Positions 1-37,514 of a stretch of DNA of 64,000 nucleotides are shown here, in pieces. Position 1 is the first letter of the stretch. Every line of letters starts with the position of its first letter. The stretch is from Candidatus Danuiimicrobium aquiferis (GTDB lineage Bacteria; Omnitrophota; Omnitrophia; Omnitrophales; Danuiimicrobiaceae). Location of the stretch: positions 34,383 through 98,382 of the forward strand of contig MHFR01000068.1 of assembly GCA_001804285.1 (NCBI GenBank), in the 5' to 3' direction. Under the pieces are notes generated by a model. The model saw only the letters and a list, made by a program, of their open reading frames with translations, did not search any database and was not told the origin of the DNA. Made by a program: the position numbers and the translations under genes.

Positions 1-2
1 AA

Positions 3-419
3 GAAGGAAGCCGTTCGAAGGAACGCTATTTTTCGCCGCGGGACAGATATAACGAGTGGAACATCGGCGATCAGCCGCCCGAGTTCTGGAACCAATTCAA
101 AACCGACTTTGCGCCGGGGACTCATCTTCGTATTCACCCGCTTCTGGATTGGACGGAATTAAATATTTGGGAATATATTGACCGTGAACATATTCCGATT
201 ACGTCGCTTTATTTTGATCAAGGGAAAGGCGTCCGTTACCGGTCTCTTGGCTGTTATCCATGCACGTGTCCTGTTCAATCGACGGCAAAAAATACAAAGG
301 AAATTATTGAAGAACTGAAAACCGGTAAATTTTCCAATATTGCGGAACGTGCCGGCCGTGCGCAAGACAAAGAAGATTCAGGCGGCCTGGAAACATTGCG
401 CCGCGAGGGGTATATGTAA
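3..419 (+). CDS. cysD: Sulfate adenylyltransferase subunit 2 (CysD), C-terminal part; the 5' end lies outside the window
   Basis: Frame-3 translation ...[29 protein letters not shown]...[11 protein letters not shown]...[12 protein letters not shown] matches the CysD C-terminus. The stop overlaps the next start as TAATG. Confidence 0.85.
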
Positions 420-2221
420 TGTCAAGAGAACAAATGAACATTGTCATTGTGGGGCATGTGGATCACGGAAAAAGTACCGTGATCGGCCGTTTGCTTTCGG
501 ACACAAACTCGCTTCCGGAAGGGAAATTGGAGCAGGTGAAGGCAACGTGTGCCCGCAATGCCAAGCCGTTTGAATACGCATTTTTACTGGATGCCTTGAA
601 AGATGAGCGTAGTCAGGGAATTACAATTGATATTGCGCGATGTTTTTTTAAAACAGCGAAACGTGATTATATCATTCTGGATGCGCCGGGGCATATTGAG
701 TTTCTGAAAAACATGGTGACCGGAGCTTCCCGCGCGGAAGCAGCCATCTTGGTCATTGATGCCAAGGAAGGGATCCGTGAAAATACGAAACGTCATGGCC
801 TTTTAATTTCCATGATTGGAATCAAACAGGTGATCGTGCTTGTGAACAAGATGGACCTTATGGAATATTCCCGGGATGTTTTCGAAAGCTTCGTACGGGA
901 TTACGGAAAATTTCTCTCGGAACTTAACGTCACACCGCTTTGTTATATTCCGGTTTCTGCGTTTTATGGCGATAATTTGGTTTCACGGTCTCCGCATATG
1001 CCTTGGTATGAGGGCCCGGACATGTTGAGTCAGTTGGACGTACTGACGAACAAAGAAATTCCCGTGAAACTTCCGTTCCGTTTTCCGGTTCAGGATATCT
1101 ATAAATTTACGGAGGAAGGCGATGACCGTAGAATTTTAGCGGGTACGGTTGAAACGGGTGAAATTCATGTCAATGATGAGGTGCTTTTTCTTCCATCAAG
1201 AAAGAAAAGCCGGATTCAATCAATAGAATTATTTAACGCACCGGTTTTCGAGCGCGCTCAGGCTGGTCAGGCCATAGGGTTTACGGTAACGACCCAGCTT
1301 TATATTCCGCCCGGCGAAATGATGGTTAAAGTTTCTGAGAACCGTTTGCCTAAAATAAGCTGCCGCTTCAAGGCGAATGTTTTCTGGGTCGGAAATACGC
1401 CAATGATCAAGGATAAGGTTTATAAACTTAAAGTTGCGACGGCACGGGTGCCCGTCAAATTAGCGGAAATTGTTCGCGTTGTGGATGCTGCCGACTTGAG
1501 CGCTATGGTGAGTCAGCAGGTGGTCAACCGGCACGATGTGGCAACCTGTATTTTTGAGACGCTCAAACCAATTGCCTACGATCTGGGTCAAGATATCGAA
1601 GGAACGAGCCGCTTTGTCATTGTGGATCATTATGAAATTGCAGGCGGTGGTGTCATTCTCGAAAGTTTGGAAGTTCAGGAAACGGATCTGGAGCGGCATG
1701 TGAAGGATCGTGAGTATCGTTGGGACCGTGGATATGTTTCCCGCGAAGAACGAAAAATCGCTTATTCGCATTGTGGAAAGTTTATTTTATTTACGGGACT
1801 CGACAAAGATGATCGTACGAAAGTACTGGCCAAAACGCTTGAAAGAAAACTGTTTGACAGTGGTTGCAAAGCCTATTACCTTGGTTTTGAAAATTTGGAA
1901 ACCGGCTTGGATGCGGACCAGAATTATGCCCAGGATAGCCGCGAGGAGAAGATCCGGCGGCTTGGCGAGTTAGGGAGAATTCTTACGGATTCGGGTCAAA
2001 TTTTTGTGACGACCATGCCCGATTTAGATGACTACGACATCGGAAATCTTAAAAAGTTGATCAGTCCGTATGAGGCGTTTGTGGTGAATGTGGGGACTTC
2101 GTCCTTTCAAGAATTTAAATCCGACTTAAATATTTCAAAAGCAGACGACCCGCGTGAGGCGATTAACCGGGTTTGCAAATTACTCAAAGAAAAAGAAATT
2201 ATCTTTGAGTATTCGATTTAA
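419..2221 (+). CDS. cysN: Sulfate adenylyltransferase subunit 1 (CysN GTPase) fused to a C-terminal APS-kinase-like domain with a degenerate P-loop
   Basis: N-terminal [10 protein letters not shown]1 motif and EF-Tu-like GTPase domain. The C-terminal ~160 aa resemble CysC ([10 protein letters not shown]), but the P-loop reads [11 protein letters not shown] instead of GLSGSGKST and the LDGD motif is LGFE. Confidence 0.85.
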
Positions 2222-2256
2222 GTAATAGTACATAAATCATTGTGCATTTGAATATC

Positions 2257-2285
2257 CTGTCATTCCCGAATGCTGGAATGCACAA
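2257..2285 (+). repeat. Short palindromic element (tgtcattcccgaatgctggaatgcaca) after cysNC, sharing the tgtcattcccg 5' end of the repeat family
   Basis: Hairpin cattcc-cgaatgct-ggaatg nested in gtgcatt...aatgcac. The 11-mer tgtcattcccg is identical to the 5' ends of the repeat elements elsewhere in the window. Confidence 0.4.
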
Positions 2286-2350
2286 ATACTTATGCACTAT
2301 TACGTAGAGGTTCATTGGGGGCGGCTGGTTTTTTTTGAGACAATACGGAT

Positions 2351-3064
2351 ATGCGAAAAAATAAAGGGAAGGTTTTTTTAGTGGGATTCGGCCCAGGAGC
2401 GCCGGACTTGATCACGCGCCGGGGCGAGGAAGCGCTGTCGCGCGCGGAGGTGATTTTTTATGATCATTGGGTGGATCGCCGTTATCTCAGAAAATTCCAG
2501 GCTGAAAAAATTTATGTCGGCAAGCAAAAAGGGAAACACGGAAGGCCCCAGGATGAGATAAATGAGCTCTTGTATCAAGCTGCCCGGGACGGGAAATGCA
2601 TTGTACGGTTAAAGGGAGGTGACCCCTTTATTTTTGGACGGGGCGGCGAAGAACAGGAATATCTGGAAGCGCGATCAATAAGGGTTGTCGTCATCCCGGG
2701 CGTGACTGCAGCGCTTGCGGCAGCGGCGTGTGCCGGGATTCCGTTAACGCATCGAGGGGTTTCTTCTTCTGTTGCCTTTTGTGCAGGGCATCCGACAGAT
2801 AAAATTCAGACACCATGCGTTGATACAATTGTTTATTATATGGCCGGATCCAACGCTATGGAAATTATGGACCGGTTGATTCGGAATGGATGGGATAAAG
2901 AAACGCCGGTGGCATTTATTAGCAATGCAACGCTTCCCATGGAGAAAATAAGGATAAGCACTTTGGAAAAAGAAATCGGAAAGCAAAAGAGAGTTCAGAC
3001 GCCGCTGATCATGATTGTGGGGAAAACCGTTGGCATGGCAAAAGAACCCGAAAAAGAGGAATGA
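2351..3064 (+). CDS. cobA: Uroporphyrinogen-III C-methyltransferase (SUMT) for siroheme synthesis
   Basis: FLVGFGPGAPDLIT, RLKGGDPFIFGRGGEE and VVIPGVTAALAAAACAGIPLTHRG are diagnostic SUMT motifs. Confidence 0.85.
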   Translation: MRKNKGKVFLVGFGPGAPDLITRRGEEALSRAEVIFYDHWVDRRYLRKFQAEKIYVGKQKGKHGRPQDEINELLYQAARDGKCIVRLKGGDPFIFGRGGEEQEYLEARSIRVVVIPGVTAALAAAACAGIPLTHRGVSSSVAFCAGHPTDKIQTPCVDTIVYYMAGSNAMEIMDRLIRNGWDKETPVAFISNATLPMEKIRISTLEKEIGKQKRVQTPLIMIVGKTVGMAKEPEKEE

Positions 3065-3068
3065 AAAT

Positions 3069-3542
3069 TTGAAATATTATCCTGTCTGTTTGAATTTGGT
3101 TCGTCAAAACGTATTGATTGCGGGTGCGGGGCAAGTAGCCGAACGCAAGATCAAGGCCCTTTTGAAATTTAAGCCTCGCCTTAAGGTGGTTTCGCCCTTG
3201 GCGGTACCGGCTATTATTCAATTGGCCCGGAATCGAAAATTAGATTGGTTAAAAAGGAAATATCAAACATCGGATCTTAATCAAGTTGTTTTGGTGGTAG
3301 CCGCGACTTCAGATCGGGCAACGAATGGGAAAATAAGTCGGGATGCAAAAAAGAAAAAAATTTTGGTGAATGTAGTTGACGAATCCCGGCTAAGCAATTT
3401 TATTTCGCCGGCTGTTTTTCAAAAAGGAAAAGTGATTGTTGCAGTATCCACCGATGGCCGCGAGCCAAAACTATCGAGGGATCTTAAAAATTTTATTAAG
3501 GAATATTGGGATGAATTTTTATCGTTTCGGCGTAGAGGATAG
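3069..3542 (+). CDS. sirC: Precorrin-2 dehydrogenase / sirohydrochlorin ferrochelatase (SirC/Met8-like Rossmann domain). The start codon is uncertain (TTG 3069 or TTG 3096).
   Basis: VLIAGAGQVAERKIKALLKF Rossmann motif typical of the CysG N-domain/SirC. The ORF-track M at 3015 overlaps cobA, and an AGAGGA RBS precedes TTG 3069. Confidence 0.6.
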   Translation: MKYYPVCLNLVRQNVLIAGAGQVAERKIKALLKFKPRLKVVSPLAVPAIIQLARNRKLDWLKRKYQTSDLNQVVLVVAATSDRATNGKISRDAKKKKILVNVVDESRLSNFISPAVFQKGKVIVAVSTDGREPKLSRDLKNFIKEYWDEFLSFRRRG

Positions 3543-3594
3543 GACTATATAATTATTAGTGTAATTATTAGTGTTGCACACGGAGGATTAAAAA

Positions 3595-3834
3595 ATGAAA
3601 ATTAAAGTGAACGGCAAAGATCAAGTCATCGATGCGGCATCGCTGACTGTGACGGAATTATTGAAGACAGTCAAGGTGGAATCTCCGGAAATGGTATCGG
3701 TTCAGCTGAACGGAGAATTCCTGAGCAAGGAACATTTTGCTAATAAATATGTGAAAGATGCGGACGAAGTTGATTTCTTGTATTTTATGGCCGGTGGAAT
3801 TGAGGAACTTCCCGTATCGGAATGGAGAAAATGA
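3595..3834 (+). CDS. ThiS/MoaD-family sulfur-carrier protein (HcyS/CysO-like) with an 11-aa extension after the Gly-Gly
   Basis: 79 aa with a beta-grasp-like sequence ...DEVDFLYFMAGG followed by IEELPVSEWRK. A GGAGG RBS precedes it. It is co-operonic with MetY, a ThiF-like E1 and a JAMM protease. Confidence 0.75.
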   Translation: MKIKVNGKDQVIDAASLTVTELLKTVKVESPEMVSVQLNGEFLSKEHFANKYVKDADEVDFLYFMAGGIEELPVSEWRK

Positions 3835-5069
3835 TGAAAGATTTACGTTTTATTACTAAAATTTTGCATACGAAATATTTAAGAGAAGATTCTCACGGAT
3901 CGTTGCATATGCCGGTCTATGACAATGTGACTTTTGAATTTAAAACCGCCGAAGATTTGGAACTTGCGTTTCAGGGGAAAAAGCCATCTCATATGTATTC
4001 GCGCATCAGCAACCCGACGATTGAACATTTTGAACAGAGGATTAAGTCGGTGACTGGTGCTGTTGGCGTGTTAGCCCTTTCTTCCGGTATGGCTGCTATT
4101 TCTAATACCTTTTTAACCATTGCGAAGGCACAGGATAATATCATTACGAGCAAGCATCTTTTTGGGAACACATATTCTTTATTTGAATATACGTTGAGAG
4201 ATTGGGGTTTGGAAACGCGGTATACGGATTTAACAAAGCCTGATCAAGTTGCTCGCCTAATCGATCATAAGACCAAAGCGATATTTTTGGAGACCATTAC
4301 GAATCCTCAGCTTGAAGTGGCGGATATCAAAGCTTTGTCTGAGATAGCGAAGGCTAAAAACATTTTGCTAATTGCGGATACAACCCTGACGCCGCCCTAT
4401 CTTTTTTCTGCGAGAGAATTTGGTGTAGATATTGAAACCCTCTCAAGTACCAAATGGATTTCCGGAGGGGCGACCAGCGTTGGTGGGTTAATCATCGATC
4501 ATGGTCTTTATGACTGGAAACAAAACGAAAAGTTGCGGCGGGACGTTAATAAATATGGTCCATTTACTTTCATGACCCGCCTCAGGCGCGAAGTTTACCG
4601 GAATATCGGAGCCTGTATGTCACCTCATAATGCGTATCTGCAGAGTTTGGGGCTTGAAACGCTGGCATTACGGCTCGATCAGGCTTGCGTGAACACACTC
4701 AAGATTGCCGGGTTTTTAAAAGAGTCTTCCCACGTATCATCGGTGAATTATCCTGGCCTCAGGGATTCTATTTATTATGAGATTGCGGGAAAACAATTTG
4801 GCGAAAAGTCGGGAGCACTTTTAACGTTTGATTTGACATCGAAAAATCAGTGTTTTAAATTCATGAATAAATTGCAGCTGATTAGAAGAGCCACAAACTT
4901 GCATGACAACAAGACGCTGATTATACATCCGGCATCAACAATTTTTTGTGAGTACGATGACAAGCTTAAACAGGAAATGGGTGTTCGGGATACGATGCTC
5001 AGGCTCGCGGTGGGAATTGAGGACAGCCGGGATTTAATTACTGATATTCAACAGGCGCTGGAGGGATGA
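3822..5069 (+). CDS. metY: O-acetylhomoserine sulfhydrylase (PLP-dependent Cys/Met-metabolism enzyme, MetY-like)
   Basis: SRISNPT, VLALSSGMAAI and the TLSSTKWISGG PLP-lysine region. Its start overlaps the carrier-protein stop. Confidence 0.8.
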   Translation: MEKMMKDLRFITKILHTKYLREDSHGSLHMPVYDNVTFEFKTAEDLELAFQGKKPSHMYSRISNPTIEHFEQRIKSVTGAVGVLALSSGMAAISNTFLTIAKAQDNIITSKHLFGNTYSLFEYTLRDWGLETRYTDLTKPDQVARLIDHKTKAIFLETITNPQLEVADIKALSEIAKAKNILLIADTTLTPPYLFSAREFGVDIETLSSTKWISGGATSVGGLIIDHGLYDWKQNEKLRRDVNKYGPFTFMTRLRREVYRNIGACMSPHNAYLQSLGLETLALRLDQACVNTLKIAGFLKESSHVSSVNYPGLRDSIYYEIAGKQFGEKSGALLTFDLTSKNQCFKFMNKLQLIRRATNLHDNKTLIIHPASTIFCEYDDKLKQEMGVRDTMLRLAVGIEDSRDLITDIQQALEG

Positions 5070-5890
5070 TCATGAATTTTAACGAGGAACAGATAGAAAG
5101 ATATAGCCGCCATATTATCTTGAAGGATGTCGGGGTTGAGGGACAGGAAAAAATGATGGCCGGGAAAGTTTTAATTATAGGAACCGGCGGGTTGGGAGCG
5201 CCGGCGGCATTATATTTAGCAGCGGCAGGAGTCGGTGTCATCGGTTTGGTTGATGCGGACAATGTCGAGTTGTCAAATTTACAGCGGCAGGTCATTCACT
5301 TCACCCCTGATGTGAATAAACCCAAGGTGATTTCCGCTAAGGAGAAGATTGAAGCGATCAATCCGGATGTGAAAGTGGTAACGTACCACACGAAAGTGTT
5401 TTCCGAAAATATTACCGGTATCATAAAAGATTATGATTTTGTCATTGACGGGACGGACAACTTTGCGGCCAAATTCCTGATTAACGATGCTTGCGTATTT
5501 GCAGCAAAACCTTTTTCGCACGGTGCAATTTTGCGTTTTAGCGGGCAAACGATTACATATGTGCCGGGCAGTACCTGTTATCGCTGTATTTTTCTAACGC
5601 CGCCGCCGACAGATGCGGTACCCAATTGTTCGCAGGCTGGCATTTTGGGCGCAGTCGCCGGGATGCTTGGAACGATACAGGCTACCGAAGCACTCAAGTT
5701 TCTGATAAAAAAGGGAGAACTTCTTCAAAATCGGCTTCTTACTTTTGATGCTTTGGATATGAAATTTCGAGAAGTTGCCGTTACACGGAATCCTCGCTGC
5801 CCGATTTGCGGGGAAAACCCTTCGATTAAAAAGTTGATTGACGAGGCTCAGCCCGTGTGTAGTTTGAAAAATAAAAATAAGAAAACGTAA
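5066..5890 (+). CDS. ThiF/MoeB/HcyF-family E1-like adenylyltransferase for the sulfur carrier protein
   Basis: RYSRHIIL..VGVEGQ, the VLIIGTGGLGAPAALYLAAAGVG nucleotide-binding loop, and C-terminal CxxC...CPIC zinc motifs. Confidence 0.8.
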   Translation: MIMNFNEEQIERYSRHIILKDVGVEGQEKMMAGKVLIIGTGGLGAPAALYLAAAGVGVIGLVDADNVELSNLQRQVIHFTPDVNKPKVISAKEKIEAINPDVKVVTYHTKVFSENITGIIKDYDFVIDGTDNFAAKFLINDACVFAAKPFSHGAILRFSGQTITYVPGSTCYRCIFLTPPPTDAVPNCSQAGILGAVAGMLGTIQATEALKFLIKKGELLQNRLLTFDALDMKFREVAVTRNPRCPICGENPSIKKLIDEAQPVCSLKNKNKKT

Positions 5891-5894
5891 TCCC

Positions 5895-6302
5895 ATGAAA
5901 ATAGAAAAACAGATTATCGAACAATTAATTGCTCATGCAAAAAAGGAAGCGCCGCTTGAAGCATGCGGGTACCTCGCTGGGCGTGACCATGTGATAACAG
6001 TTTCTTATGAATTAACCAATCAGGATCAGAGTAGTGAACATTTTTCCTTTGATCCGAAGGAACAATTTTCAGCGGTTAAAGATGCGAGGCAAAAAGGGTT
6101 TGAAATTTACGCAGTCTATCATAGTCATCCGGCCAGTCCCGCGCGTCCTTCTGCCGAAGATATCAAGTTAGCTTATGATCCGGACATACTGTATTTCATC
6201 GTTTCTTTGGCTTCAGGACGAGAAGATGTCCGCGCGTTTGAAATTAAAAACAAGCAAGTTGAATCGGTGAATTTGGAGGTTATTCATCATGAAGGGGTAT
6301 AG
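5895..6302 (+). CDS. JAMM/MPN+ metalloprotease (Mec+/HcyD-like) that trims the carrier-protein C-terminus
   Basis: EACGYL...HSHPASPARPSAED matches the JAMM motif E...HxHx7Sx2D. It is 135 aa and sits adjacent to the ThiF-like gene. Confidence 0.8.
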   Translation: MKIEKQIIEQLIAHAKKEAPLEACGYLAGRDHVITVSYELTNQDQSSEHFSFDPKEQFSAVKDARQKGFEIYAVYHSHPASPARPSAEDIKLAYDPDILYFIVSLASGREDVRAFEIKNKQVESVNLEVIHHEGV

Positions 6303-8664
6303 CATCCCGCCTCAATTAGACGGCGAAATTAACCAGCTTGAGAAACTGATTGAAAAATTCAAGCGCGGCGAAATCACGGCTGTGGAGGTGAAAGCCCATC
6401 GTGTGCCTTTCGGGGTATATGAGCAAAGGGAGTCAGACACGTATATGATGAGAATCCGCTGTGTCGCGGGAATGATCAGCCCTTTGCAATTGGAAAAAGT
6501 TGCCGGGATTGCGACACAATACGGCATCCGTGATATTCATATTACGACCCGGCAAGAACTTCAGATCCATTATGTCAAATTGGAATATCTTGTAGCCATG
6601 ATAAGACAGTTGAAAGAAATTGGCCTGGCCACTAGAGGCGGTGGCGGAAATACCGTGAGAAATATTGTTGCACAGGAGGATGCCGGCATTAATCCTTTGG
6701 AGGAATTTGATGTTTCGCCTTACGCTTTGGCATTGACGAGCCGGATGATTGCCGAGAGTGATTCGTGGAATCTTCCGCGGAAATTTAAAATCGCCTTTTC
6801 CGGCTCATCAGAAGACAAAGGATATGCGACGATTGCCGATGTTGGTTTTATTGCCAAAATAAAAGACGGTAAAAAAGGGTTCAAAGTTTATGCGGCGGGT
6901 GGGTTGGGCGCGAAATCCGAAGTGGGTAAACTTCTTTTGGAATTTATCGGGGCGGACGAAGTATTCGCAGTCACAAAGGCTTTGAAGAATGTTTTTTTCA
7001 AATACGGCAATCGTAAGAACAAACACGCGGCACGCCTTCGGTTTTTATGGCAGAGCCTTGGCGACGAGGAATTCAGAAAAAAATTCCAGGAAGAATATAA
7101 AAAAAACAAACAGGATGAGGTTTTGCCGTTAGTTATCGAGGAAATAGAAAGTGAAGGTGTTTCTGACAAGCTATTGCCAGAAGAACCTGAAAGCGTATCC
7201 GATTTTACATTGTGGAAGGGACGATATGTCAAGACACAGAAGCAGGCGGATTTCGTCTCGATAATGATTCCTGTGGAGTTGGGTTTCATTTCGTCCGACC
7301 AAGCAAGAAAATTAGGGCATTTTCTCGCTCCATTCGGCGATAACGTGCTACGAATGACGAAGAATCAGAATTTTCTGCTAAGAAATATCCCCAAGAAGTA
7401 TTTAGGCAATATATACAATTTTTTAAAAGATATTTTTCATGGAATCAGCCGTCCGACGATTTACGGAAAGATTTTATCTTGCGCCGGGGCAGCCACATGC
7501 CAGTTGGGGATTTGTTTGTCACGCCAGGCAGCCAAAGCCGTCATGAAAGATCTTGGAGAAAGCGGTCTCAATTTGGACGATGCGGGAGATATTAAGATTA
7601 ATATTTCCGGTTGCCCCAACTGTTGCGGACAGCATCTGGCGGCTGATCTTGGGTTTTCCGGGAAAGCCTTGCGGAAAGAAGGACGGTTATATGCTGCCTA
7701 TAATGTTTTTGCGGGAGCTGTTATTTATGATGGCCGGACGAAATTTGCTGAACACGTCGGAGAAATTGCTGCGAAACATATGCCGGCTTTTGTGAAAGAT
7801 TTTCTGAACATCTATTTATTCAAAACGAAACAATATAAAAACATTCAAGAATATCTCCTGCGAGAGGGGACGAAAGAATTAAAAAAGCTTTGCCTTCATT
7901 ATAAAGGAATACCCGGTTTTGAAGAAGACAAAAACTTTTATTTCGACTGGGATGCCGACAGCTTGTTTTCACTCGCCGAACGCCGGGCGGGTGAATGTTC
8001 TGCCGGTTTTTTTGACTTGATTCAAGTGGATTTGAATCATATTCATGAAACACGGAAGATACTTGCGGCCGAACAGACTGGTGAGACCGAGAAAAAGAAA
8101 CTTCTGTATGATCTTATATTTTATTCGTGCAGAATGCTCCTGATTACCCGTGGCATTGAGCCGAAAAATGAAAGCGAAGTTTTCGAAACATTTCAGAAAC
8201 ATTTTATCGATACGGGTTTTATCGCTGTGGCGTTTAAAGAGTTGATGACTTTAGCTCTACATAAGAATTACCAAACATTGCTGGATCGGGAAAACGATGT
8301 GTCCCGTTTTTCGAAAGACGTGGAAGCGCTATATGAGAATATGGATAATAGCTTCAATTTTAAAAGGCCTGCTCCTGAGTTTGTTACACATGAAAGTGAA
8401 AGAGTTGTTTCTTCAAAAGAAAAAGCTGCTGATCGTCCGGCGGTGCTGAAAGATTTACGAGGAGTTGTTTGTCCCTTAAATTTTGTGAAAACGAAAATTG
8501 AACTTTCTAAACTGAAACCGGGTGATATTCTGGAAATATGGCTTGATGACGGCGAGCCCATCGAAAATGTGCCCGGTTCTGTAAAAGCCGAAGGTCATGA
8601 GATTGTTGAGAGAAAGAAAATAGGCGATCATTGGTCAGTGATCATCGAGAAAAAGGTGACATAA
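6289..8664 (+). CDS. sir: Assimilatory (ferredoxin-type) sulfite reductase hemoprotein with an inserted middle domain and a C-terminal TusA-like sulfur-transfer domain
   Basis: Nitrite/sulfite reductase ferredoxin-like half-domains. Siroheme/4Fe-4S cysteines CAGAATCQLGIC...GCPNCCGQH. C-terminal 80 aa LRGVVCPLNFVKTKIELSKLKPGDILEIWLDDGEPIENVP resemble TusA (CPxP-type motif). Confidence 0.8.
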   Translation: MKGYSIPPQLDGEINQLEKLIEKFKRGEITAVEVKAHRVPFGVYEQRESDTYMMRIRCVAGMISPLQLEKVAGIATQYGIRDIHITTRQELQIHYVKLEYLVAMIRQLKEIGLATRGGGGNTVRNIVAQEDAGINPLEEFDVSPYALALTSRMIAESDSWNLPRKFKIAFSGSSEDKGYATIADVGFIAKIKDGKKGFKVYAAGGLGAKSEVGKLLLEFIGADEVFAVTKALKNVFFKYGNRKNKHAARLRFLWQSLGDEEFRKKFQEEYKKNKQDEVLPLVIEEIESEGVSDKLLPEEPESVSDFTLWKGRYVKTQKQADFVSIMIPVELGFISSDQARKLGHFLAPFGDNVLRMTKNQNFLLRNIPKKYLGNIYNFLKDIFHGISRPTIYGKILSCAGAATCQLGICLSRQAAKAVMKDLGESGLNLDDAGDIKINISGCPNCCGQHLAADLGFSGKALRKEGRLYAAYNVFAGAVIYDGRTKFAEHVGEIAAKHMPAFVKDFLNIYLFKTKQYKNIQEYLLREGTKELKKLCLHYKGIPGFEEDKNFYFDWDADSLFSLAERRAGECSAGFFDLIQVDLNHIHETRKILAAEQTGETEKKKLLYDLIFYSCRMLLITRGIEPKNESEVFETFQKHFIDTGFIAVAFKELMTLALHKNYQTLLDRENDVSRFSKDVEALYENMDNSFNFKRPAPEFVTHESERVVSSKEKAADRPAVLKDLRGVVCPLNFVKTKIELSKLKPGDILEIWLDDGEPIENVPGSVKAEGHEIVERKKIGDHWSVIIEKKVT

Positions 8665-8744
8665 AAAAAGGAAAAGTATATTTAATCAGCGCCGGGCCAT
8701 ATCTCAGCTTATTCGCAGAGAAAGATTAATGCGTGGATGGTCTG

Positions 8745-8933
8745 ATAAGGCCAACGCAGGAAAAATGTTGTGCGGCTGAAAAATGGTGATCCTTTTATTT
8801 TCAGCTGGATCTCTCAGGAAATGGAAGCCTTGCGGGAAAGTCATATCGGGTTTGAAGTCGTTCCGAGAATTACTGCAGTTCAAACAGCCGCGGTTTTTCC
8901 GGGCAGCTTTGACCAACACGCTTTATGCAGCTG
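8745..8933 (+). pseudogene. Remnant of a second SUMT (cobA/cysG-like) gene
   Basis: One frame reads KNVVRLKNGDPFIFSWISQEMEALRESHIGFEVVPRITAVQTAAVFPGSF, which matches the SUMT core (VRLKGGDPFIFGRGGEE...VVPGVTAA). It has no start, is frameshifted upstream and truncated downstream. Confidence 0.6.
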
Positions 8934-9416
8934 ATGAGGCCGGAAATTGACGATTCCGCGATAGAAACCTGAGGCGAACAAAATGGGTTCATCTATTGAG
9001 GAGTCTTTTTTTATTTCCGAGTGTGAGCTCGGTCGTTCTATCCCGGCGTATTTGTGTCGTTTCTGTGAAAGCAGGAATACGCGTAAAGGGCAGGAATGAC
9101 AAAAACGACAACAACTTAACGAATCCCAACCCGATTAATTCTTTACCAGCGATTTGTTTAAAAATTTCCAATAGGATTTTGGCAAGGCTGAAACTTTTTT
9201 TACGCCCGTCCCCTTGGGGGGGGGGAATATCATTGTAATTTGTGGTTTGAAAAAAACCGAGGACAGTTGTGAAGCATTTACTTGAAAAAAGATTAATTTC
9301 GTGTAATATCTCCGTTGTAAAATTTTCTCCTAATATTGTCATAAAATATTCGCTCAAGAGGCGAAAATTTTGGCACAAATTGGGCACAAGCGATTTTTGT
9401 TCTTTTCAATTTTTTT

Positions 9417-9489: not shown

Positions 9490-9669
9490 TCCCTGAGCTT
9501 TCTATAAAGAATAGCTTATGAGTAATTAATGTAGCTCAGGGACAGCCATGATTTTCATTGAAATATACTTGGGATTATAAATAGGGAATCATGACAGACC
9601 TTGAGATTCCTATAAAAAATGACATATGGTAACTCAAGGACAGACGCACAGGTCTGTGCGTGTTTTTTT
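9490..9669 (+). ncRNA. Candidate small structured RNA (four consecutive hairpins ending in an intrinsic terminator) just upstream of tRNA-Leu
   Basis: Stems ccctgagct/agctcaggg, catgatt/aatcatg, cttgag/ctcaag, then acgcacag-gtc-tgtgcgt followed by TTTTTTT (9644-9669). No ORF is present. Confidence 0.35.
9644..9669 (+). terminator. Rho-independent terminator (GC stem plus T7)
   Basis: acgcacaggtctgtgcgt followed by ttttttt. Confidence 0.6.
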
Positions 9670-9711
9670 AGATTGGCGGATTTTTGATGAATTTATAAGG
9701 CTTTTTGATAT

Positions 9712-9798
9712 GCCGGGATGGCGAAATTGGCAGACGCACAGGACTTAAAATCCTGAGGGAATTAACATTCCCGTGCCGGTTCAAGTCCGGCTCCCGGC
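9712..9798 (+). tRNA. tRNA-Leu (anticodon UAA) with a long variable arm; no CCA is encoded
   Basis: Acceptor GCCGGGA/TCCCGGC, anticodon stem CAGGA/TCCTG with loop CTTAAAA (anticodon TAA), variable-arm stem GGGAAT/ATTCCC, and T-arm GCCGG-TTCAAGT-CCGGC. Confidence 0.85.
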
Positions 9799-10136
9799 AG
9801 TATTTATTGTTAGGTTCTTCGGCTCATCCCGGCTCATCCCCAATAACAGGGGCAATGGCTAATTTAAGTTCATGTTTAACCGCATAAGATTTTCACGAGC
9901 AGATCTCGCAGTCCAATTCTAAAGTTCGTCAACCTCTATGCAATTTTTGCCCGACGTTCTTGCGCGGAAAAGTGCGATGTCAGCGGCTTTGATTAAATCT
10001 TTTAAAATATCCGATGATAACGCAGCACATGCTCTCTGTTTCTGCCGAATTTTTTATTGTATAAATTTGGGAATAAGATAGAATACGAAACTTATTAACG
10101 GAGTTATTCACCCATCTTCATGACGTATAAAAAAAG

Positions 10137-12041
10137 ATGAATTTTATTGTTTTGATTAAACAAGTTCCGGACGTCTCAAACATTCCAGAAGAAGCTTGGG
10201 ATAGGGAAAAAGGGACGCTTCGACGGAATATGCTTGATAATGTCTTGAATCCCCTTGATTTTCACGCCATCACGTTTGCCTGCCAGCTCCGCGAGAAATT
10301 TGGAGATGAGAGCGGAAAAGTGATTTGTCTTACCATGGGACCGCCGATGGCCAAGGAAGTTCTTCTTGACGGGATTGCGCGCGGTGCAGACGAAGCGATT
10401 TTGCTGACCGACAGGGCTTTTAGCGGGGCAGATACGATTGCAACGGCTTATTCACTGGCTCAATGCATCCGGAAAGTCGAACGGGAAATTTTTAACGGAA
10501 ATCGTGAATACATCATTATTACCGGGATGCAGTCCGTCGACGGTGATACGGCGCAAGTCCCGCCCCAAGTCGCGGAAGTGCTTGGGATGGAACAGATTGC
10601 GTATGCGCAGTCGTTTGATTTCGATAAAAGATTGGTTGTGAAACGCATCGGCCCTCACGGAATGGAATCCATTGTTCCAAAGCGATATCCCGTTTTGATT
10701 ACCACGACCGCATGTACGGAACCGCTTTACCGGTCATTTCACGGGATGCGGGGCGCGCGCGAAAAAACATTTCACCAATGGTCTGCCGCTGATATCCAGG
10801 TCGACCAAGATAAAATCGGCTTGAAAGGTTCCCGGACGCAGGTGTACCGGATTTTTTCGCCAAGTGAGGAAAGAAAAAAGGAGTGTTGTTTTCCAAAAAG
10901 CGTTGATGAATTGATCGATTTGATTGAGCAAAAGTATAAACAGGGTCCGGTGGCAGTTCAGGGGAAAGTGGGACAGGTTTACGCGATCGGGGATAAAAAG
11001 CCGAGTTATCATGGAGAACTTTGGGTTTATATCGAACAATGGAAAGGGCATGTTGCGCCGGTTTCTTACGAACTTTTGGCAAAAGCGCGCGAACTCGCCG
11101 TGCCGCTTAAAGAAAAAGTCGGTGCGGTTCTAGTGGGACATCAAATTTCTGGGATAGCGAAAGAAATGATTGCCCGCGGCGCTGATAAAGTTTATGTTGT
11201 AGATGATCCGCAGCTTGAATATTTTCTTCCGATGCCATATAAAAAAGCCGTTTCCAGCCTTGTGATTCAACACAAGCCGCAAATCATGCTGTTCGGAGCC
11301 ACGCCGCTCGGACGGGAACTTGCACCACGCGTTGCGTCAAGTTCGAATGCCGGATTGACGGCAGATTGTACGAAACTCGAAATTGAGGATTTCATCAAAG
11401 GCAAAGTTGAAATGATCGCCATTTTGAAACAAACGCGGCCGGCTTTGGGCGGAAATATTATGGCGACGATTATGACAAAAGACTGCGATACGCAAATGGC
11501 TACCGTTCGCCCCGGTGTATTGAAAGCAAATGAACCGGATCCTGCCCGGACCGGCGAAATCATTCCATTTAACATTCAAATAACGGCTGATGATATCCGG
11601 ACCGAAGTGATTGCCCGGGAGTCTTTAGTCGAAAAAGCAAGTTTGGCGCATGCGGACATTATTATTTCTGGCGGACGCGGACTTGGAACCAAATCCAGTT
11701 ACGATAAATTTATTCGCCCGCTTGCGGCCGCATTCGGCGAGATGTTTCCGGGGAAAGTTGAAATCGGTGCGTCCCGGATGGCTGTAGAAGACGGGTTTGT
11801 TCCGCATGAACATCAAGTCGGACAAACCGGAACGACAGTTCAACCGAAGTTGTACATTGCATTCGGAATTTCCGGAGCGGTTCAGCATATTTCGGGGATG
11901 CAGCAGGCTGAAATTATTGTGGTGATCAATAAAGATCCGGATGCGCGAATGTTTAATTACGCTGATTTAGGGATGGTTTCTGATTTTCAAACCGTGATTC
12001 CCCAGATGATTGAAGCGGTGAAGAGGAGAAAGAAATCGTGA
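10137..12041 (+). CDS. etfBA: Electron transfer flavoprotein, beta and alpha subunits fused (EtfB-EtfA, FixA-FixB-like)
   Basis: N-terminus MNFIVLIKQVPD is EtfB-like. The C-terminal half carries EtfA FAD-binding motifs (IISGGRGLG, YIAFGISGAVQH). 634 aa is about the sum of both subunits. Confidence 0.8.
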   Translation: MNFIVLIKQVPDVSNIPEEAWDREKGTLRRNMLDNVLNPLDFHAITFACQLREKFGDESGKVICLTMGPPMAKEVLLDGIARGADEAILLTDRAFSGADTIATAYSLAQCIRKVEREIFNGNREYIIITGMQSVDGDTAQVPPQVAEVLGMEQIAYAQSFDFDKRLVVKRIGPHGMESIVPKRYPVLITTTACTEPLYRSFHGMRGAREKTFHQWSAADIQVDQDKIGLKGSRTQVYRIFSPSEERKKECCFPKSVDELIDLIEQKYKQGPVAVQGKVGQVYAIGDKKPSYHGELWVYIEQWKGHVAPVSYELLAKARELAVPLKEKVGAVLVGHQISGIAKEMIARGADKVYVVDDPQLEYFLPMPYKKAVSSLVIQHKPQIMLFGATPLGRELAPRVASSSNAGLTADCTKLEIEDFIKGKVEMIAILKQTRPALGGNIMATIMTKDCDTQMATVRPGVLKANEPDPARTGEIIPFNIQITADDIRTEVIARESLVEKASLAHADIIISGGRGLGTKSSYDKFIRPLAAAFGEMFPGKVEIGASRMAVEDGFVPHEHQVGQTGTTVQPKLYIAFGISGAVQHISGMQQAEIIVVINKDPDARMFNYADLGMVSDFQTVIPQMIEAVKRRKKS

Positions 12042-13621
12042 AAGAGATCGATGTCCTGATTATCGGTGCTGGACCCGCCGGCCTCGCGACTGCGATACGC
12101 CTCAAGCAAAGGTTGAATGCCGAGAAGAAAGACGCGTCTGTCGTTGTGATTGATAAAGAACCGAAACTCGGGTTTCATAATTTATCCGGCGGTGTTTTTG
12201 AAGCCGGCTGCCTTGATGAATTAGTTCCCGGTTGGCGCGAAGGTGAGGAATCTTTTTTTAAACAAACGGTTGAGATTCAAAACGACGAGCTTTATTTTTT
12301 GCTTCCCAAAGCGGCTTTTAAAATTCCTCATCTTGTGGTGCCGAAACTCATGAATCATATCGGAGATTACGCGGTTTCCGTCAGTCGAATGGCTATCTGG
12401 CTCGGAACGGTTGCGCAGAATTTGGGTGTTGAAATTTATTTGGGATTTTCCGCAAAAGAGCTTTTGATTGAAGATGGAAGGGTCAAAGGCGTAAAGCTGA
12501 TGGATTTGGGTCTTGACCGGGACGGAAAGAAGAAATCGAATTTTCTACAGGGTGAAACGGTTCATGCAAAAGTGACCGTTTTGTGCGATGGTTCTCACGG
12601 TGTACTTTCGGAACAACTTTCGAAATTATTGCCGCCGGCAAAAAATCCGCAAGTGTATTCGATTGGGGTGAAACAGCTGATTAAATTGCCGCCCGAAAGT
12701 GCATTTGGGAATAATCGCGCGATTCATACGCTTGGTTTTCCGAACCGTTTCGATGTTTTTGGTGGCGGTTTTATGTATAGCATGCCGGACAATATGATAG
12801 CGATCGGTCTCATTTTGGGGCTCGACTGGCCGTACGGCGATTTGAATGAGCAGCAGGAACTTGAGGTGTTCAAAACGCATCCTTTGATTGCGCGTTTTCT
12901 GAAAGATGGAAAAATTGTTGCGGCCGGAGCGAATACGATTCCCGAAGGCGGGTATTACTCGATTCCCAAATTGTTTACGAACGGCGCTTTGTTGGTAGGA
13001 GATTCAGCCGGTTTTGTGAATATGGAAAAAATCAAAGGAATTCATTATGCGATTCGGGGCGGAATGAGCGCTGCGGATGCAATTTTAGACGCGTTGACCG
13101 CGAATGATTTTACGGAAAAGATATTAGCAAAATATGAAATAAATTTGAAGGAGAGCGGTATTTTAAAAGAGCTTTATCACGCCCGGAATTTTCGGCAGGG
13201 TTTCAAGTACGGACTTCCTATCGGAATGCCGCTTTCTCAGATCCAAAGTTTTATTCCGTTCCCGATCAGTATCGAGGAAGATTATAAAGGCACGAAAAAG
13301 GGGAGACGGCTGAATCGAAAGAAACAAGACTCAATGGATCGCGCGCAGTTTGTTGCGTTGTCAGGTTCGTCGCATGATGAAAATCAACCGTCCCATGTCG
13401 CAATTCCCGATCCTGAGTTGTGTCAGCAATGCGGCAAGTTTTACGCTTACTCGTGTACGCATTTTTGTCCGGGGGAAGTCTACCGGCAAAAAGACGGAAA
13501 AATCGTATTGAGTCCTTCCAATTGTTTGCATTGTCAAACCTGTATAATCAAATGTCCTTTCCATAATATTACGTGGACACCCCCCGAAGGCGGCGAAGGC
13601 CCGAGATTTAAATATCTGTAA
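12038..13621 (+). CDS. Electron-transfer flavoprotein:quinone oxidoreductase (FixC-like FAD domain with a C-terminal FixX-like ferredoxin domain)
   Basis: VLIIGAGPAGLATA FAD-binding GxGxxG motif. C-terminal Cys cluster CQQCGKFYAYSCTHFCPGE...CLHCQTCIIKCP. Confidence 0.75.
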   Translation: MKEIDVLIIGAGPAGLATAIRLKQRLNAEKKDASVVVIDKEPKLGFHNLSGGVFEAGCLDELVPGWREGEESFFKQTVEIQNDELYFLLPKAAFKIPHLVVPKLMNHIGDYAVSVSRMAIWLGTVAQNLGVEIYLGFSAKELLIEDGRVKGVKLMDLGLDRDGKKKSNFLQGETVHAKVTVLCDGSHGVLSEQLSKLLPPAKNPQVYSIGVKQLIKLPPESAFGNNRAIHTLGFPNRFDVFGGGFMYSMPDNMIAIGLILGLDWPYGDLNEQQELEVFKTHPLIARFLKDGKIVAAGANTIPEGGYYSIPKLFTNGALLVGDSAGFVNMEKIKGIHYAIRGGMSAADAILDALTANDFTEKILAKYEINLKESGILKELYHARNFRQGFKYGLPIGMPLSQIQSFIPFPISIEEDYKGTKKGRRLNRKKQDSMDRAQFVALSGSSHDENQPSHVAIPDPELCQQCGKFYAYSCTHFCPGEVYRQKDGKIVLSPSNCLHCQTCIIKCPFHNITWTPPEGGEGPRFKYL

Positions 13622-27841: not shown

Positions 27842-28311
27842 TAATGAGGAATTGGGAATCGCTTTTAGGTACTCTTATTTATATTCTCGCCGCACTCATT
27901 GCGGCGCTTGCTGTGGTACAGCTTGTTGTGACGCCATTCAGGTTAGGCAGCCAAAAGTCAAGCGGCCATGCGTTAAGTTCGATTGATTCATTCCGGATGA
28001 CGAAATTGAAACCGTTGGAAGCATATAAGAGTGATTTTGCGAGCCATGCTCTTTTTTCAAAACTCAGAGTTGCCGTTGTTCCGAAAGGTCCGACGATAGA
28101 TGATTTACTCAAGCAATATTCGATTAACGGAATTATTCAAGGAGCGGTTCCGGATGTTTTGATTATGAATAATAGAACAAGACAAACGCAGATTTTGAGC
28201 GCCGGGCAAAGTTTCGATCAATTTAAAATCATACAAATTAAACAGCATTCCATCATGGTTGAATATCAAGGGCAACAAAAAGAACTATTTATTGCGGAGG
28301 GGCAACAATGA
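27838..28311 (+). CDS. Membrane-anchored protein, possibly a PilP/GspC-like secretin-associated component
   Basis: N-terminal TM helix LIYILAALIAALAVVQLVV. It lies immediately upstream of, and overlaps, the secretin gene. No strong motif was found. Confidence 0.4.
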   Translation: MIMRNWESLLGTLIYILAALIAALAVVQLVVTPFRLGSQKSSGHALSSIDSFRMTKLKPLEAYKSDFASHALFSKLRVAVVPKGPTIDDLLKQYSINGIIQGAVPDVLIMNNRTRQTQILSAGQSFDQFKIIQIKQHSIMVEYQGQQKELFIAEGQQ

Positions 28312-30548: not shown

Positions 30549-30603
30549 GGCGTATCTATTTAGCGTTTTGAAGTAATTATTTGTAAAAGGTTTTCAACTT
30601 TTT

Positions 30604-30801
30604 TGTCATTCCCGCGAAAGCGGGAATCCAGACGCCGCTTTGGGCTCCCCGGACTTGTCCGGGGGGGAATGGCGCCCGAAGGGCGAGCCGAGCAGGGAAA
30701 GAGAAAATTCCCAGCGAGGCCAGATGTTGAAAGGTGCCCCGGGCTTGCCCGGGGGGAAACCACAAGCCATGGATGCCCGCTTAAAACATGCGAGCATGAC
30801 A
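30604..30801 (+). repeat. Long (~200 bp) member of the MITE-like repeat family with extra GC-rich internal hairpins
   Basis: tgtcattcccgcgaaagcgggaatcc...ccccggacttgtccggggggg...ccccgggcttgcccgggggg...cccgcttaaaacatgcgagcatgaca. Confidence 0.65.
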
Positions 30802-30849
30802 CAAGTTGACGTATTTGCTACTTCAAAGCGCTAAAAAGATACGTGTAAG

Positions 30850-37492: not shown

Positions 37493-37514
37493 AAACGATG
37501 AAAGGTGCATTTGC

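Follow-up and report, generated by a model that had tools for sequence, protein, structure and literature searches.

Candidatus Danuiimicrobium aquiferis encodes an assimilatory sulfite reductase (SiR) that is joined at its C-terminus to a TusA domain. The gene, here called sir, lies in the window (the whole stretch of 64,000 nucleotides that we analysed, from contig MHFR01000068.1). This SiR-TusA fusion is real and widespread, as the same architecture is present in at least 432 GTDB species from many phyla. In the window it closes a gene cluster for homocysteine synthesis on a protein thiocarboxylate, and we give roughly even odds (about 0.5) to a relay in which sulfur from the reductase would be held as a persulfide on the tethered TusA and handed to the adenylated carrier, HcyS-AMP. 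Persulfide channelling by the fusion, as put forward in the original prediction, is plausible.

A Wolinella-type homocysteine operon

The genes are tightly packed in the order cysD-cysN-cobA-sirC-hcyS-metY-hcyF-hcyD-sir, with sir last (Table 1). Overlaps join hcyS and metY (13 nt), the metY stop and the hcyF start (4 nt), and hcyD and the sir start (14 nt). An adjacent thiocarboxylate-carrier pathway had been predicted, and all of its parts could be recognized: a ThiS-like carrier, a PLP enzyme of the O-acetylhomoserine sulfhydrylase type, a ThiF/MoeB-type E1 and a JAB protease. The HcyS/HcyF/HcyD/MetY/Sir pathway of Wolinella succinogenes has the same set of parts, adjacent and co-oriented; common to both are a carrier with residues past its Gly-Gly, a rhodanese-less E1, a JAB protease, an O-acetylhomoserine sulfhydrylase, a sulfite reductase and sulfate-activation genes. 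The cluster is an Omnitrophota-like version of this Wolinella-type pathway.

Table 1. Features of the sir operon, with window coordinates.
Feature	Position	Strand	Evidence or remark
cysD 3' part (sulfate adenylyltransferase subunit 2)	3..419	+	CysD C-terminus by eye; cut at window edge
cysN with C-terminal APS-kinase-like domain	419..2221	+	TIGR02034 CysN 339 bits (cut-off 336)
cobA, uroporphyrinogen-III C-methyltransferase (siroheme synthesis)	2351..3064	+	NF004790 248.5 bits (cut-off 198)
sirC, CysG N-terminal-type precorrin-2 dehydrogenase (siroheme synthesis)	3015..3542	+	TIGR01470 125 bits (cut-off 62.3)
hcyS-like ThiS-family sulfur carrier	3595..3834	+	TIGR01683 50.6 bits (cut-off 37.45)
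metY-like O-acetylhomoserine sulfhydrylase (PLP enzyme)	3822..5069	+	Pfam Cys_Met_Meta_PP 355 bits
hcyF-like ThiF/MoeB E1 adenylyltransferase	5066..5890	+	Pfam ThiF 264.9 bits; 274 aa
hcyD-like JAB metalloprotease	5895..6302	+	Pfam Prok-JAB 89.5 bits (cut-off 25)
sir, SiR-TusA fusion	6289..8664	+	ATG start; 791 aa
sir: sulfite reductase core (aa 1-539)	6289..7905	+	two NIR_SIR_ferr/NIR_SIR repeats; cluster Cys398, 404, 442, 446
sir: family-specific C-terminal module (aa 540-690)	7906..8358	+	conserved segment, then helical bundle
sir: probable flexible tether (aa 691-718)	8359..8442	+	pLDDT 26-47
sir: TusA domain (aa 719-791) and stop codon	8443..8664	+	Cys728 in KDxRGvxCPxNFVKTK
decayed cobA remnant	8716..8905	+	directly 3' of sir; tblastn of the window's CobA

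The HcyS product ends in FMAGG followed by an 11-residue tail (IEELPVSEWRK), and its homologues end in FMGGG followed by tails of 0-25 residues; the Wolinella carrier, from the pathway of Krishnamoorthy and Begley (JACS 2011), reportedly has a tail of one alanine. HcyF also passes the MoeB model NF004281 (275 bits, cut-off 266); ThiF is the sole real domain in its 274 residues, and Pfam detected no rhodanese domain in it. MetY stays below the cut-off of TIGR01326 (378 against 495 bits). The cysD fragment is 77-83% identical to genes adjoining cysN in four other loci (L003, L068, L074, L078). In the cysN product, the Pfam APS_kinase match covers only positions 2-80 of 152, and its P-loop looks degenerate in sequence at the site where GxxGxGK[ST] would be expected. 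CobA also matches TIGR01469 (239 bits, cut-off 185). The Pfam NAD_binding_7 match in the sirC product begins at residue 25, and translation probably starts further 3' than the listed TTG.

The cobA remnant next to sir is 40% identical over 63 residues to the window's CobA (E 1e-9) and has two in-frame stops. It is a non-functional trace of an ancestral sir-cobA order, and cobA lies directly 3' of sir in L007, L011, L014 and L070. No cysH or thiosulfate transporter gene was found within 0-50.5 kb of the window. Fused EtfB-EtfA and FixC/FixX-like genes (10137-13621) were considered as electron donors to the reductase; we rejected this link as a conserved feature because an ETF match occurs in only one of the 80 related loci, and these genes are set apart from sir by a tRNA and a terminator-like site.

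The reductase core

The predicted 791-residue frame at 6289-8664 stood as described, and its product has three parts: the reductase core (residues 1 to ~540), a module (~540-690), and a tether with the TusA domain (719-791). The core has the two reductase halves and the CPNCCGQH cluster motif (residues 442-449) that had been noted. Two stretches each of NIR_SIR_ferr (109 bits) and NIR_SIR (143 bits) were detected by Pfam, and the cluster cysteines, arranged as C398-x5-C404 and C442-x3-C446 (CX5C...CX3C; codons at 7480, 7498, 7612 and 7624), do not vary across 32 homologues and are conserved in 79-80 of 80 loci. Also invariant in the 32-homologue alignment are R88, R116, R124, K165 and K167, with the motifs RGGGGNTVRN and LPRKFK; judged by motif rather than by a structure-based alignment, these residues may correspond to R83/R153/K215/K217 of SiRHP.

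The nearest solved fold is that of NirA/SirA from M. tuberculosis (1zj8; TMt 0.79, E 3e-30, 22% identity), which is likewise monomeric with two repeats and CX5C...CX3C cluster cysteines but stops at the end of the reductase fold (546 residues), with no Cys-bearing module, HEPN-like bundle or TusA. By sequence, the best matches among solved proteins are ferredoxin-nitrite reductases of plants (3b0h, 9e-41), and NirA and ferredoxin-nitrite reductase head the NCBIfam ranking, with all equivalogs below cut-off. A nitrite reductase is nonetheless extremely improbable: the M. tuberculosis "NirA" that gives the best structural match is in fact a ferredoxin-dependent sulfite reductase, and sir is surrounded, here and across dozens of genomes, by genes for sulfate activation, siroheme and thiocarboxylate formation, with no nitrogen-assimilation genes seen in the gene context. 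These neighbours (cysDN, siroheme genes, hcyS module) favour sulfite as the substrate. The sir product is a monomeric NirA/SirA-type siroheme-[4Fe-4S] assimilatory sulfite reductase, probably dependent on ferredoxin. NCBI records name SiR-TusA proteins "sulfurtransferase TusA family protein", which conceals their role as the organism's sulfite reductase.

A cysteine module and a tethered TusA domain

Since the reductase fold extends to about residue 535-540, the region without assignment begins at about residue 540. Its existence had been correctly predicted, but it spans residues ~540-715 (~175 residues) rather than ~200 residues between 500 and 700, and what had been called an insert is a C-terminal module between reductase and TusA, not a part of the reductase fold. 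The module opens with a conserved segment, DW..FS.AeR..GECSAG.FDL, whose xECxAG motif contains Cys570 (codon 7996-7998). This cysteine is invariant in the alignment of 32 independently found homologues; its invariance among the 80 loci is partly circular, as these were collected by the pattern GECSAGxFD. It is retained in nearly all of the best 150 cluster representatives, TusA-less forms included, and a role for Cys570 solely as partner of Cys728 was thereby ruled out.

Residues 541-560 are modelled confidently by AF2 only in the full-length protein (pLDDT 80-91, against 47-50 otherwise), which suggests that they pack on the reductase core. The helical bundle that follows (residues ~574-683, pLDDT >90) finds HEPN proteins as its top helical Foldseek matches (2hsb, TMt 0.62, probability 1.0, but E 0.11), and Pfam HEPN matches two of 22 members (best E 0.035). 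On the predicted structure, we tentatively regard the bundle as HEPN-like; residues 540-715 contain no R-x(4-6)-H, the Rx4-6H nuclease motif, and if the fold is HEPN-like this would be a non-nuclease version. A profile of the module retrieved only 417 cluster representatives from 1.84 billion, and the invariant Cys570 module is the feature least explained.

The tether varies in length by up to ~70 residues among homologues (alignment columns ~824-895). The predicted TusA-type domain beyond it is supported by both profile and structure: Pfam TusA (PF01206) matches residues 722-788 with 69.8 bits (cut-off 28.6, E 1.7e-19) and all 22 of 22 homologues, and the model, with a pLDDT of only 49-78, has a beta-alpha-beta-alpha-beta-beta fold (DSSP: E719-722, H732-740, E747-752, H760-767, E771-778, E781-787) whose superposition on E. 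coli TusA (3lvj_C) gives a TMt of 0.80 and an rmsd of 2.3 A. A PDB profile search with the C-terminal 256 residues had matches confined to the TusA part, namely 1jdq (4e-12), YedF 1je3 (1.6e-5) and YeeD 8k1r (0.008), and all NCBIfam TusA-type equivalogs scored below cut-off. The CPxN cysteine, Cys728 (codon 8470-8472), is kept in orthologs, being invariant in the 32 homologues, and C728, P729 and N731 are invariant in all 80 loci. TusA-fold similarity and a conserved cysteine, the two points on which the assignment had been staked beforehand, were thus both found. With the TusA family (E. coli TusA of the IscS relay, TM0983, YedF, YeeD/TsuB) the domain shares Pfam membership, fold and a conserved cysteine where helix 1 begins. 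It differs in that the second Pro of the family's CPxP is always Asn (N731) in this clade, and in being fused or adjacent to a siroheme reductase instead of being fed by a cysteine desulfurase.

Distribution and variants

Among 58 informative loci, 45, from several phyla, have hcyS, hcyF and hcyD adjoining the fusion, and the order hcyS-metY-hcyF-hcyD-sir recurs in most related loci. The co-occurrence with hcyS and hcyD raised in the original prediction holds to this extent, but 11 of the 58 loci have no match to hcyS, metY, hcyF or hcyD within 6 kb. Parabacteroides sp. Marseille-P3160, a cultured carrier along with Dysgonomonas capnocytophagoides DSM 22835 and Bacteroides neonati, has the fusion in a plain cysDNH/siroheme operon, with no hcy genes nearby.

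Other members of the clade vary the arrangement. TusA can be a separate gene 15 nt downstream of the reductase, with the same CPxNF...LDDGEPIxNVPxSV motifs; a rhodanese domain (Pfam 44.5 bits) takes its position in P0217; a JAB domain can be fused to the reductase N-terminus (JAB-SiR-TusA) behind ThiS-ThiF; and a CysN-TusA fusion can lie beside a reductase that has no TusA. Some members have no fused or adjacent TusA, such as P0193, next to TauD. These variants suggest that a carrier of sulfane sulfur goes with this reductase clade. The hcy-less loci, and the split-TusA and rhodanese variants that lie outside HcyS operons, rule out the HcyS-specific TusA that had been implied: the partnership belongs to the reductase clade generally. 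Because it spans the clade beyond HcyS operons, TusA would be an outlet for sulfane sulfur built into the clade, its main client being HcyS.

A proposed sulfur relay and its alternatives

In the relay that we propose, HcyD would cut the 11-residue tail off HcyS so that Gly-Gly is exposed, and the trimmed carrier would then be adenylated by HcyF. The reductase would produce reduced sulfur from sulfite, and Cys728 of TusA, probably with the invariant Cys570 beside the catalytic core, would accept it as a cysteine persulfide. The tethered domain could then swing this persulfide to HcyS-AMP on HcyF, filling the role of the rhodanese domain in MoeZ/MOCS3-type E1 enzymes. Resolution of the acyl-disulfide would give HcyS-COSH, which MetY would join to O-acetylhomoserine, and HcyD would free homocysteine.

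Assimilatory sulfite reductases take sulfite all the way to sulfide with six electrons, which alone does not yield a persulfide. As sulfide is S(-II) and a persulfide S(0), an oxidant, a disulfide or partial reduction is needed. In a redox-neutral option, HS- would attack a disulfide between Cys570 and Cys728, which is also the one that resolution of the acyl-disulfide would leave.

Several observations speak for the relay: the operon overlaps, the complete set of pathway parts, the rhodanese-less HcyF, the invariant Cys728 and Cys570, the variable tether, the hcy co-occurrence in 45 of 58 loci, and the JAB-SiR-TusA, split-TusA, rhodanese-swap and CysN-TusA variants. Against it stand the 11 of 58 fusions without an hcy match, the clade members without any TusA, and the conservation of Cys570 where TusA is absent, which gives this cysteine a role beyond that of Cys728 partner.

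The relay is also not chemically required, because Krishnamoorthy and Begley reportedly converted HcyS-AMP with free bisulfide in 2011; their Wolinella scheme, a work cited in PMC6225789, is said to use bisulfide made by Sir. Released HS- could thus react directly with HcyS-AMP, with TusA off the HcyS path, serving Fe-S, tRNA or Moco clients, buffering sulfide or being regulatory, and the fusions without hcyS nearby and the TusA-less members fit such a scheme. We judge it unlikely, although a serious contender, as the fusion directly follows hcyD in 45 of 58 loci, JAB-SiR-TusA fusions exist, and the rhodanese swap is hard to explain if the domain has no sulfur-transfer role. Moreover, in the operons as described in passages of Iyer et al. 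(2006; PMC1779556), the E1 is consistently without rhodanese and TusA consistently there.

A placement of TusA or rhodanese upstream of siroheme is distinctly improbable. There the domain would cleave thiosulfate or accept an S-sulfonate, sending sulfite to the reductase and keeping the sulfane sulfur as persulfide, such that both sulfurs of thiosulfate are assimilated. The domain does score higher against TM0983, YedF and YeeD/TsuB, a thiosulfate-uptake partner, than against E. coli TusA; rhodanese, which classically converts thiosulfate to sulfite and a persulfide, replaces it in P0217; and TusA is also fused to CysN. Yet the sulfate-activation genes of the operons (cysDN, often cysH) provide sulfite without thiosulfate, neither the window up to 50.5 kb nor the annotated contexts showed a YeeE-type transporter, and the tight link to hcyS, hcyF and hcyD would be left unexplained.

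The relay to HcyS-AMP could be extended to the whole clade, a step that we consider quite unlikely. No free sulfide would then be released, the Cys570 module would capture siroheme-derived sulfur for the TusA or rhodanese cysteine, and the true product in at least 432 species would be a protein persulfide, not H2S. For this capture, a partly reduced intermediate might be intercepted in the manner of DsrC, or sulfide might attack a Cys570-Cys728 disulfide.

Relation to known systems

The idea of a sulfur hand-off is not new: it was predicted from genomes in 2006. As stated in passages of Iyer, Burroughs and Aravind (2006; PMC1779556), such operons always contain SirA (=TusA) and an E1 without rhodanese, SirA was predicted to act in the role of rhodanese with sulfur probably reaching the ThiS-like protein, and SiR-ThiS fusions occur in actinobacteria. 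SirA figures there as a "protein", and these passages mention neither its covalent fusion to SiR nor the Cys570/HEPN-like module, nor the variants with rhodanese or a fused JAB; Omnitrophota had not been sampled at that time. In the literature beyond that paper we found no explicit description of a SiR-TusA fusion, and no experimental test of a TusA sulfur hand-off was found in the literature. Neither MetaCyc nor KEGG included the thiocarboxylate methionine pathway as of 2017 (PMC5764234).

Two established systems offer further parallels (see also PMC1779556). In the MoeZ/MOCS3 E1-rhodanese fusions, a persulfide-carrying domain loads a ThiS/MoaD-like acyl-adenylate, as proposed here, and in the CysO/CysM/Mec+ system of M. 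tuberculosis, amino-acid synthesis is completed by a JAB protease together with a PLP sulfhydrylase, as here. In contrast to these, the carrier in the window is a TusA on the reductase rather than on the E1, and homocysteine is made instead of cysteine.

DsrAB-DsrC also resembles SiR-TusA in pairing a siroheme sulfite reductase with a cysteine-bearing, sulfur-carrying protein. DsrC, however, is not a TusA-fold protein, the sir product has only distant fold similarity to DsrAB (E 1e-6), and we saw no sign in the fusion of a four-electron, trisulfide-type reaction. In sulfur oxidisers, TusA itself is known to take part in the TusA-DsrEFH-DsrC relay (PMC10839748).

The fusion defines two candidate cysteines, Cys570 and Cys728, and its relatives offer natural controls in the split TusA, the rhodanese swap, the TusA-less forms and the JAB fusions. 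Textbooks present assimilatory sulfite reductases as sources of free sulfide. If the persulfide hand-off is true, sulfate assimilation would feed straight into the traffic of persulfides and thiocarboxylates, bypassing an intermediate that is toxic and diffusible, and the SiR-TusA clade would be an assimilatory counterpart to DsrAB-DsrC.

Domain architecture and conservation

The predicted 791-aa ORF, here called sir, is present, and Pfam confirms its reductase half-domains as two NIR_SIR_ferr/NIR_SIR repeats between residues 44 and approximately 535. The CPNCCGQH motif lies at residues 442-449, and the NirA-family model of NCBIfam aligns to residues 49-535. The proposed C-terminal TusA domain was also recovered (residues 722-788; 69.8 bits against a Pfam gathering score of 28.6). 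The architecture as a whole lies outside curated family coverage, since no reductase or TusA equivalog of NCBIfam reaches its cut-off on the sir product. The original prediction further placed an insert at residues 500-700; an unmatched region does exist (residues ~540-715, where Pfam finds no domain), and it is better termed a C-terminal module of ~175 aa, located between the reductase fold and TusA.

Across 32 full-length homologues (48-66% identity), the cluster cysteines C398, C404, C442, and C446 are invariant, as are the motifs RGGGGNTVRN and LPRKFK, the segment DW..FS..R..GEC.AG..D carrying Cys570 in the C-terminal module, and the TusA motif D.R...CP.N.V..K carrying Cys728. The helices that follow the Cys570 segment hold a few invariant hydrophobic positions as well. 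Cys728 is invariant in 80 of 80 related loci, including those lacking the hcyS module described below. Cys570 is likewise invariant in 80 of 80, in a set partly picked by a pattern containing this residue; independently, it is conserved in the 32 homologues and in nearly all of the best 150 cluster representatives, TusA-less forms included.

Predicted structure

AlphaFold2 was run on shallow alignments of 22 and 32 sequences. The full-alignment model of the sir product (pLDDT 84, pTM 0.80) has a confident reductase core, whose Foldseek neighbor is the NirA of M. tuberculosis (1zj8, TMt 0.79). Residues 541-560 rise from a pLDDT of 47-50 when the C-terminal part is modeled alone to 80-91 in the full-length model, which suggests that this segment lies against the reductase fold. 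The helical bundle at residues 574-683 is confidently modeled and may tentatively be called HEPN-like. Foldseek ranks HEPN proteins highest for it (2hsb, TMt 0.62), though E exceeds 0.1; Pfam HEPN touches two of 22 members (best E 0.035) and residues 540-715 contain no Rx4-6H motif, so the label is kept tentative. Residues 691-720 are of low confidence (pLDDT 26-47) and vary in length by up to ~70 residues among homologues. The TusA domain (pLDDT 49-78) superposes on E. coli TusA (3lvj_C; TMt 0.80, rmsd 2.3 A). Overall, the model looks like a carrier domain attached through a flexible tether.

The sulfur operon

The neighbors of sir all lie on the same strand and are tightly packed, with overlaps of 13 nt (hcyS/metY), 4 nt (metY/hcyF), and 14 nt (hcyD/sir). 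That the enzyme is a nitrite reductase is made very unlikely by this gene context, and we give that reading almost no credence. No cysH turned up in the window's first 50 kb.

Features of the window
Feature	Position	Strand	Remarks
cysD		+	cut by window edge
cysN	419-2221	+	degenerate C-terminal APS-kinase-like tail
cobA and sirC		+	siroheme synthesis
hcyS	3595-3834	+	ThiS-like, 79 aa
metY		+	O-acetylhomoserine-sulfhydrylase-type PLP enzyme
hcyF		+	ThiF/MoeB E1, 274 aa, no rhodanese domain
hcyD		+	JAB protease
sir	6289-8664	+	791 aa
cobA fragment	8716-8905	+	directly 3' of sir; two in-frame stops
ORF	8989-9387	-	132 aa, no family match
hairpin	9640-9670		terminator-like, with T-run
tRNA-Leu(TAA)	9711-9800	+	
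EtfB-EtfA fusion	10137-12041	+	single polypeptide, 634 aa
FixC/ETF-QO-like flavoprotein	12038-13621	+	527 aa, C-terminal ferredoxin-like 4Fe-4S part
type II secretion or type IV pilus-like cluster	28308-39158	+	ORFs without any family match at 33266-33841 and 34478-37492
sulfotransferase-like ORF	42869-43780	+	weak Pfam matches

The C-terminus of HcyS reads FMAGG followed by 11 residues, so trimming is needed, a task of the JAB protease in this type of pathway. Related ThiS-like carriers (loci L002-L080) share a conserved DFLYFMGGG and have tails of 0 to ~25 residues; the need for JAB trimming therefore varies widely between species.

Two further observations concern this operon. The P-loop expected of an APS kinase is GxxGxGK[ST]. 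In CysN, ten other residues occupy that site, and the APS-kinase-like domain (residues ~430-600) aligns with no more than the first half of the Pfam model. The domain is probably a remnant without catalytic activity, possibly regulatory. Over 63 aa (E 1e-9), the cobA fragment shares 40% identity with the intact CobA of the window. Because several relatives carry an intact cobA at exactly this post-sir position, while the window's intact cobA-sirC lies upstream of hcyS, the fragment suggests a trace of rearrangement, or of duplication followed by decay.

Distribution and co-occurrence with the hcyS module

Almost all of the best 120 database relatives combine NIR_SIR and TusA in ~780 aa. They come mostly from Omnitrophota MAGs and are labeled 'sulfurtransferase TusA family protein' or 'sulfite reductase (ferredoxin)'. 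One, P0001, is a 100%-identical fragment of 608 aa; the next-best identity in the alignment is 66%. The Cys570/helical module is confined to one reductase clade, as its profile matched no more than 417 cluster representatives out of 1.84 billion, in every case at roughly residues 540-690 of a reductase-length protein or in a fragment. When one genome per GTDB species was scanned, the C-terminal module was found in at least 432 loci, from Omnitrophota, Bacteroidota, Ignavibacteria, Chlorobiota, Fibrobacterota, Verrucomicrobiota, Calditrichota, Desulfobacterota-type lineages, Acidobacteriota, and others. Among the carriers in culture are Dysgonomonas capnocytophagoides DSM 22835, Parabacteroides sp. 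Marseille-P3160, and Bacteroides neonati.

Co-occurrence of the fusion with the hcyS module, a check suggested with the original prediction, holds for a majority of loci but is not universal. Upstream sequence was long enough in 58 loci. In 45 of them hcyS, hcyF, and hcyD lie no more than 6 kb away, mostly arranged as in the window; two have a partial module, and 11 show none of the four module genes (hcyS, metY, hcyF, hcyD) in that range. In the module-less locus of Parabacteroides sp. Marseille-P3160, for example, sir ends a plain hemD-hemB-cysD-cysN-cysH-sirC-hemA-hemL-ABC-sir operon.

Natural variants and a proposed sulfur relay

TusA is present in 53 of 61 N-terminally complete representatives, and the exceptions take several forms. 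P0179 ends after the helical module, and TusA is encoded 15 nt downstream by a gene of its own (86 aa) that keeps the CPxNF...LDDGEPIxNVPxSV motifs of the fused domain; this cysH-sir-tusA unit contains no ThiS, E1, or JAB. P0262 lacks TusA and is preceded by a CysN-TusA fusion. In P0217 (L089:1966-4341) a rhodanese domain takes the usual TusA position (Pfam, 44.5 bits), and in P0193 TusA is absent nearby and TauD precedes the gene. The fused, split, and swapped forms, with the rhodanese substitution, are what would be expected if the C-terminal domain were the reductase's sulfane-sulfur carrier. The rhodanese swap would also suit a TusA acting on the substrate side, handling thiosulfate or S-sulfonate, as would the greater closeness of the TusA domain to YeeD/YedF/TM0983 than to E. 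coli TusA; we regard this role as improbable. A JAB protease is fused to the reductase N-terminus in P0240 and P0257 (L084:1052-3760), the latter preceded by ThiS and ThiF. Along with the SiR-ThiS fusions reported by Iyer et al. (2006; PMC1779556), such proteins physically tie the reductase to thiocarboxylate machinery.

In L087, TusA is fused to the CysN C-terminus (5537-6994) beside a TusA-less reductase. Upstream of this cysH-cysD-cysN(TusA)-sir operon (1-3553) lie a DsrE-like gene, a stand-alone TusA, two DUF169 genes, and a cysteine-desulfurase-like gene, which could form a second sulfur relay attached to assimilatory sulfate reduction. P0176 joins a porphobilinogen-deaminase N-terminus to a partial reductase and is possibly an assembly chimera.

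With the enzyme class, TusA identity, invariant cysteines, tether, operon, and comparative patterns in place, we propose that Cys728 takes up siroheme-made sulfur as a persulfide, probably via Cys570, and would deliver it to HcyS-AMP on the rhodanese-less HcyF; resolution of the acyl-disulfide would yield the HcyS thiocarboxylate. By our own proposal, the gap from sulfide S(-II) to persulfide S(0) could be closed without net electrons if HS- re-opens the disulfide left after that resolution, Cys570-Cys728 or another pair. Free bisulfide may instead reach HcyS as in the published route, with TusA serving other purposes, an option we consider rather unlikely.

Other genes of the window

The terminator-like hairpin and the tRNA-Leu(TAA) gene separate the sulfur operon from the ETF genes, and the minus-strand ORF is probably not a gene. 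The EtfB-EtfA and FixC-like genes overlap by 4 nt, and this Fix-type system could make low-potential reductant; ETF genes adjoin the reductase in one of 80 related loci and are not conserved there. The secretion or pilus-like cluster includes a secretin, T2SS protein F, an N-methyl-motif pseudopilin, and a T2SSE/MshE-type ATPase. The sulfotransferase, if real, would be a PAPS consumer, odd beside an apparently degenerate CysN APS-kinase domain.

Relation to known systems

The HcyS pathway was reportedly described in Wolinella succinogenes by Krishnamoorthy and Begley in 2011 (work cited in PMC6225789), and the window operon matches its parts list. Iyer et al. (2006; PMC1779556) has the same operon type as 'row 4e', notes that SirA (TusA) is constantly present and the E1 lacks rhodanese in such operons, and predicts transfer to the ThiS-like protein. 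The window gene is thus an Omnitrophota-like case and not new in kind, because the pathway is already known, the 2006 prediction is published, and public genomes hold many examples of the architecture. In the searchable literature, we found no paper that explicitly describes the covalent SiR-TusA fusion, the invariant-cysteine/HEPN-like module, or the rhodanese, JAB, and CysN-TusA variants, and no biochemical test of the relay. The residual interest of this family therefore lies in the fusion, the Cys/HEPN-like module, the domain variants, and the biochemistry of the relay.
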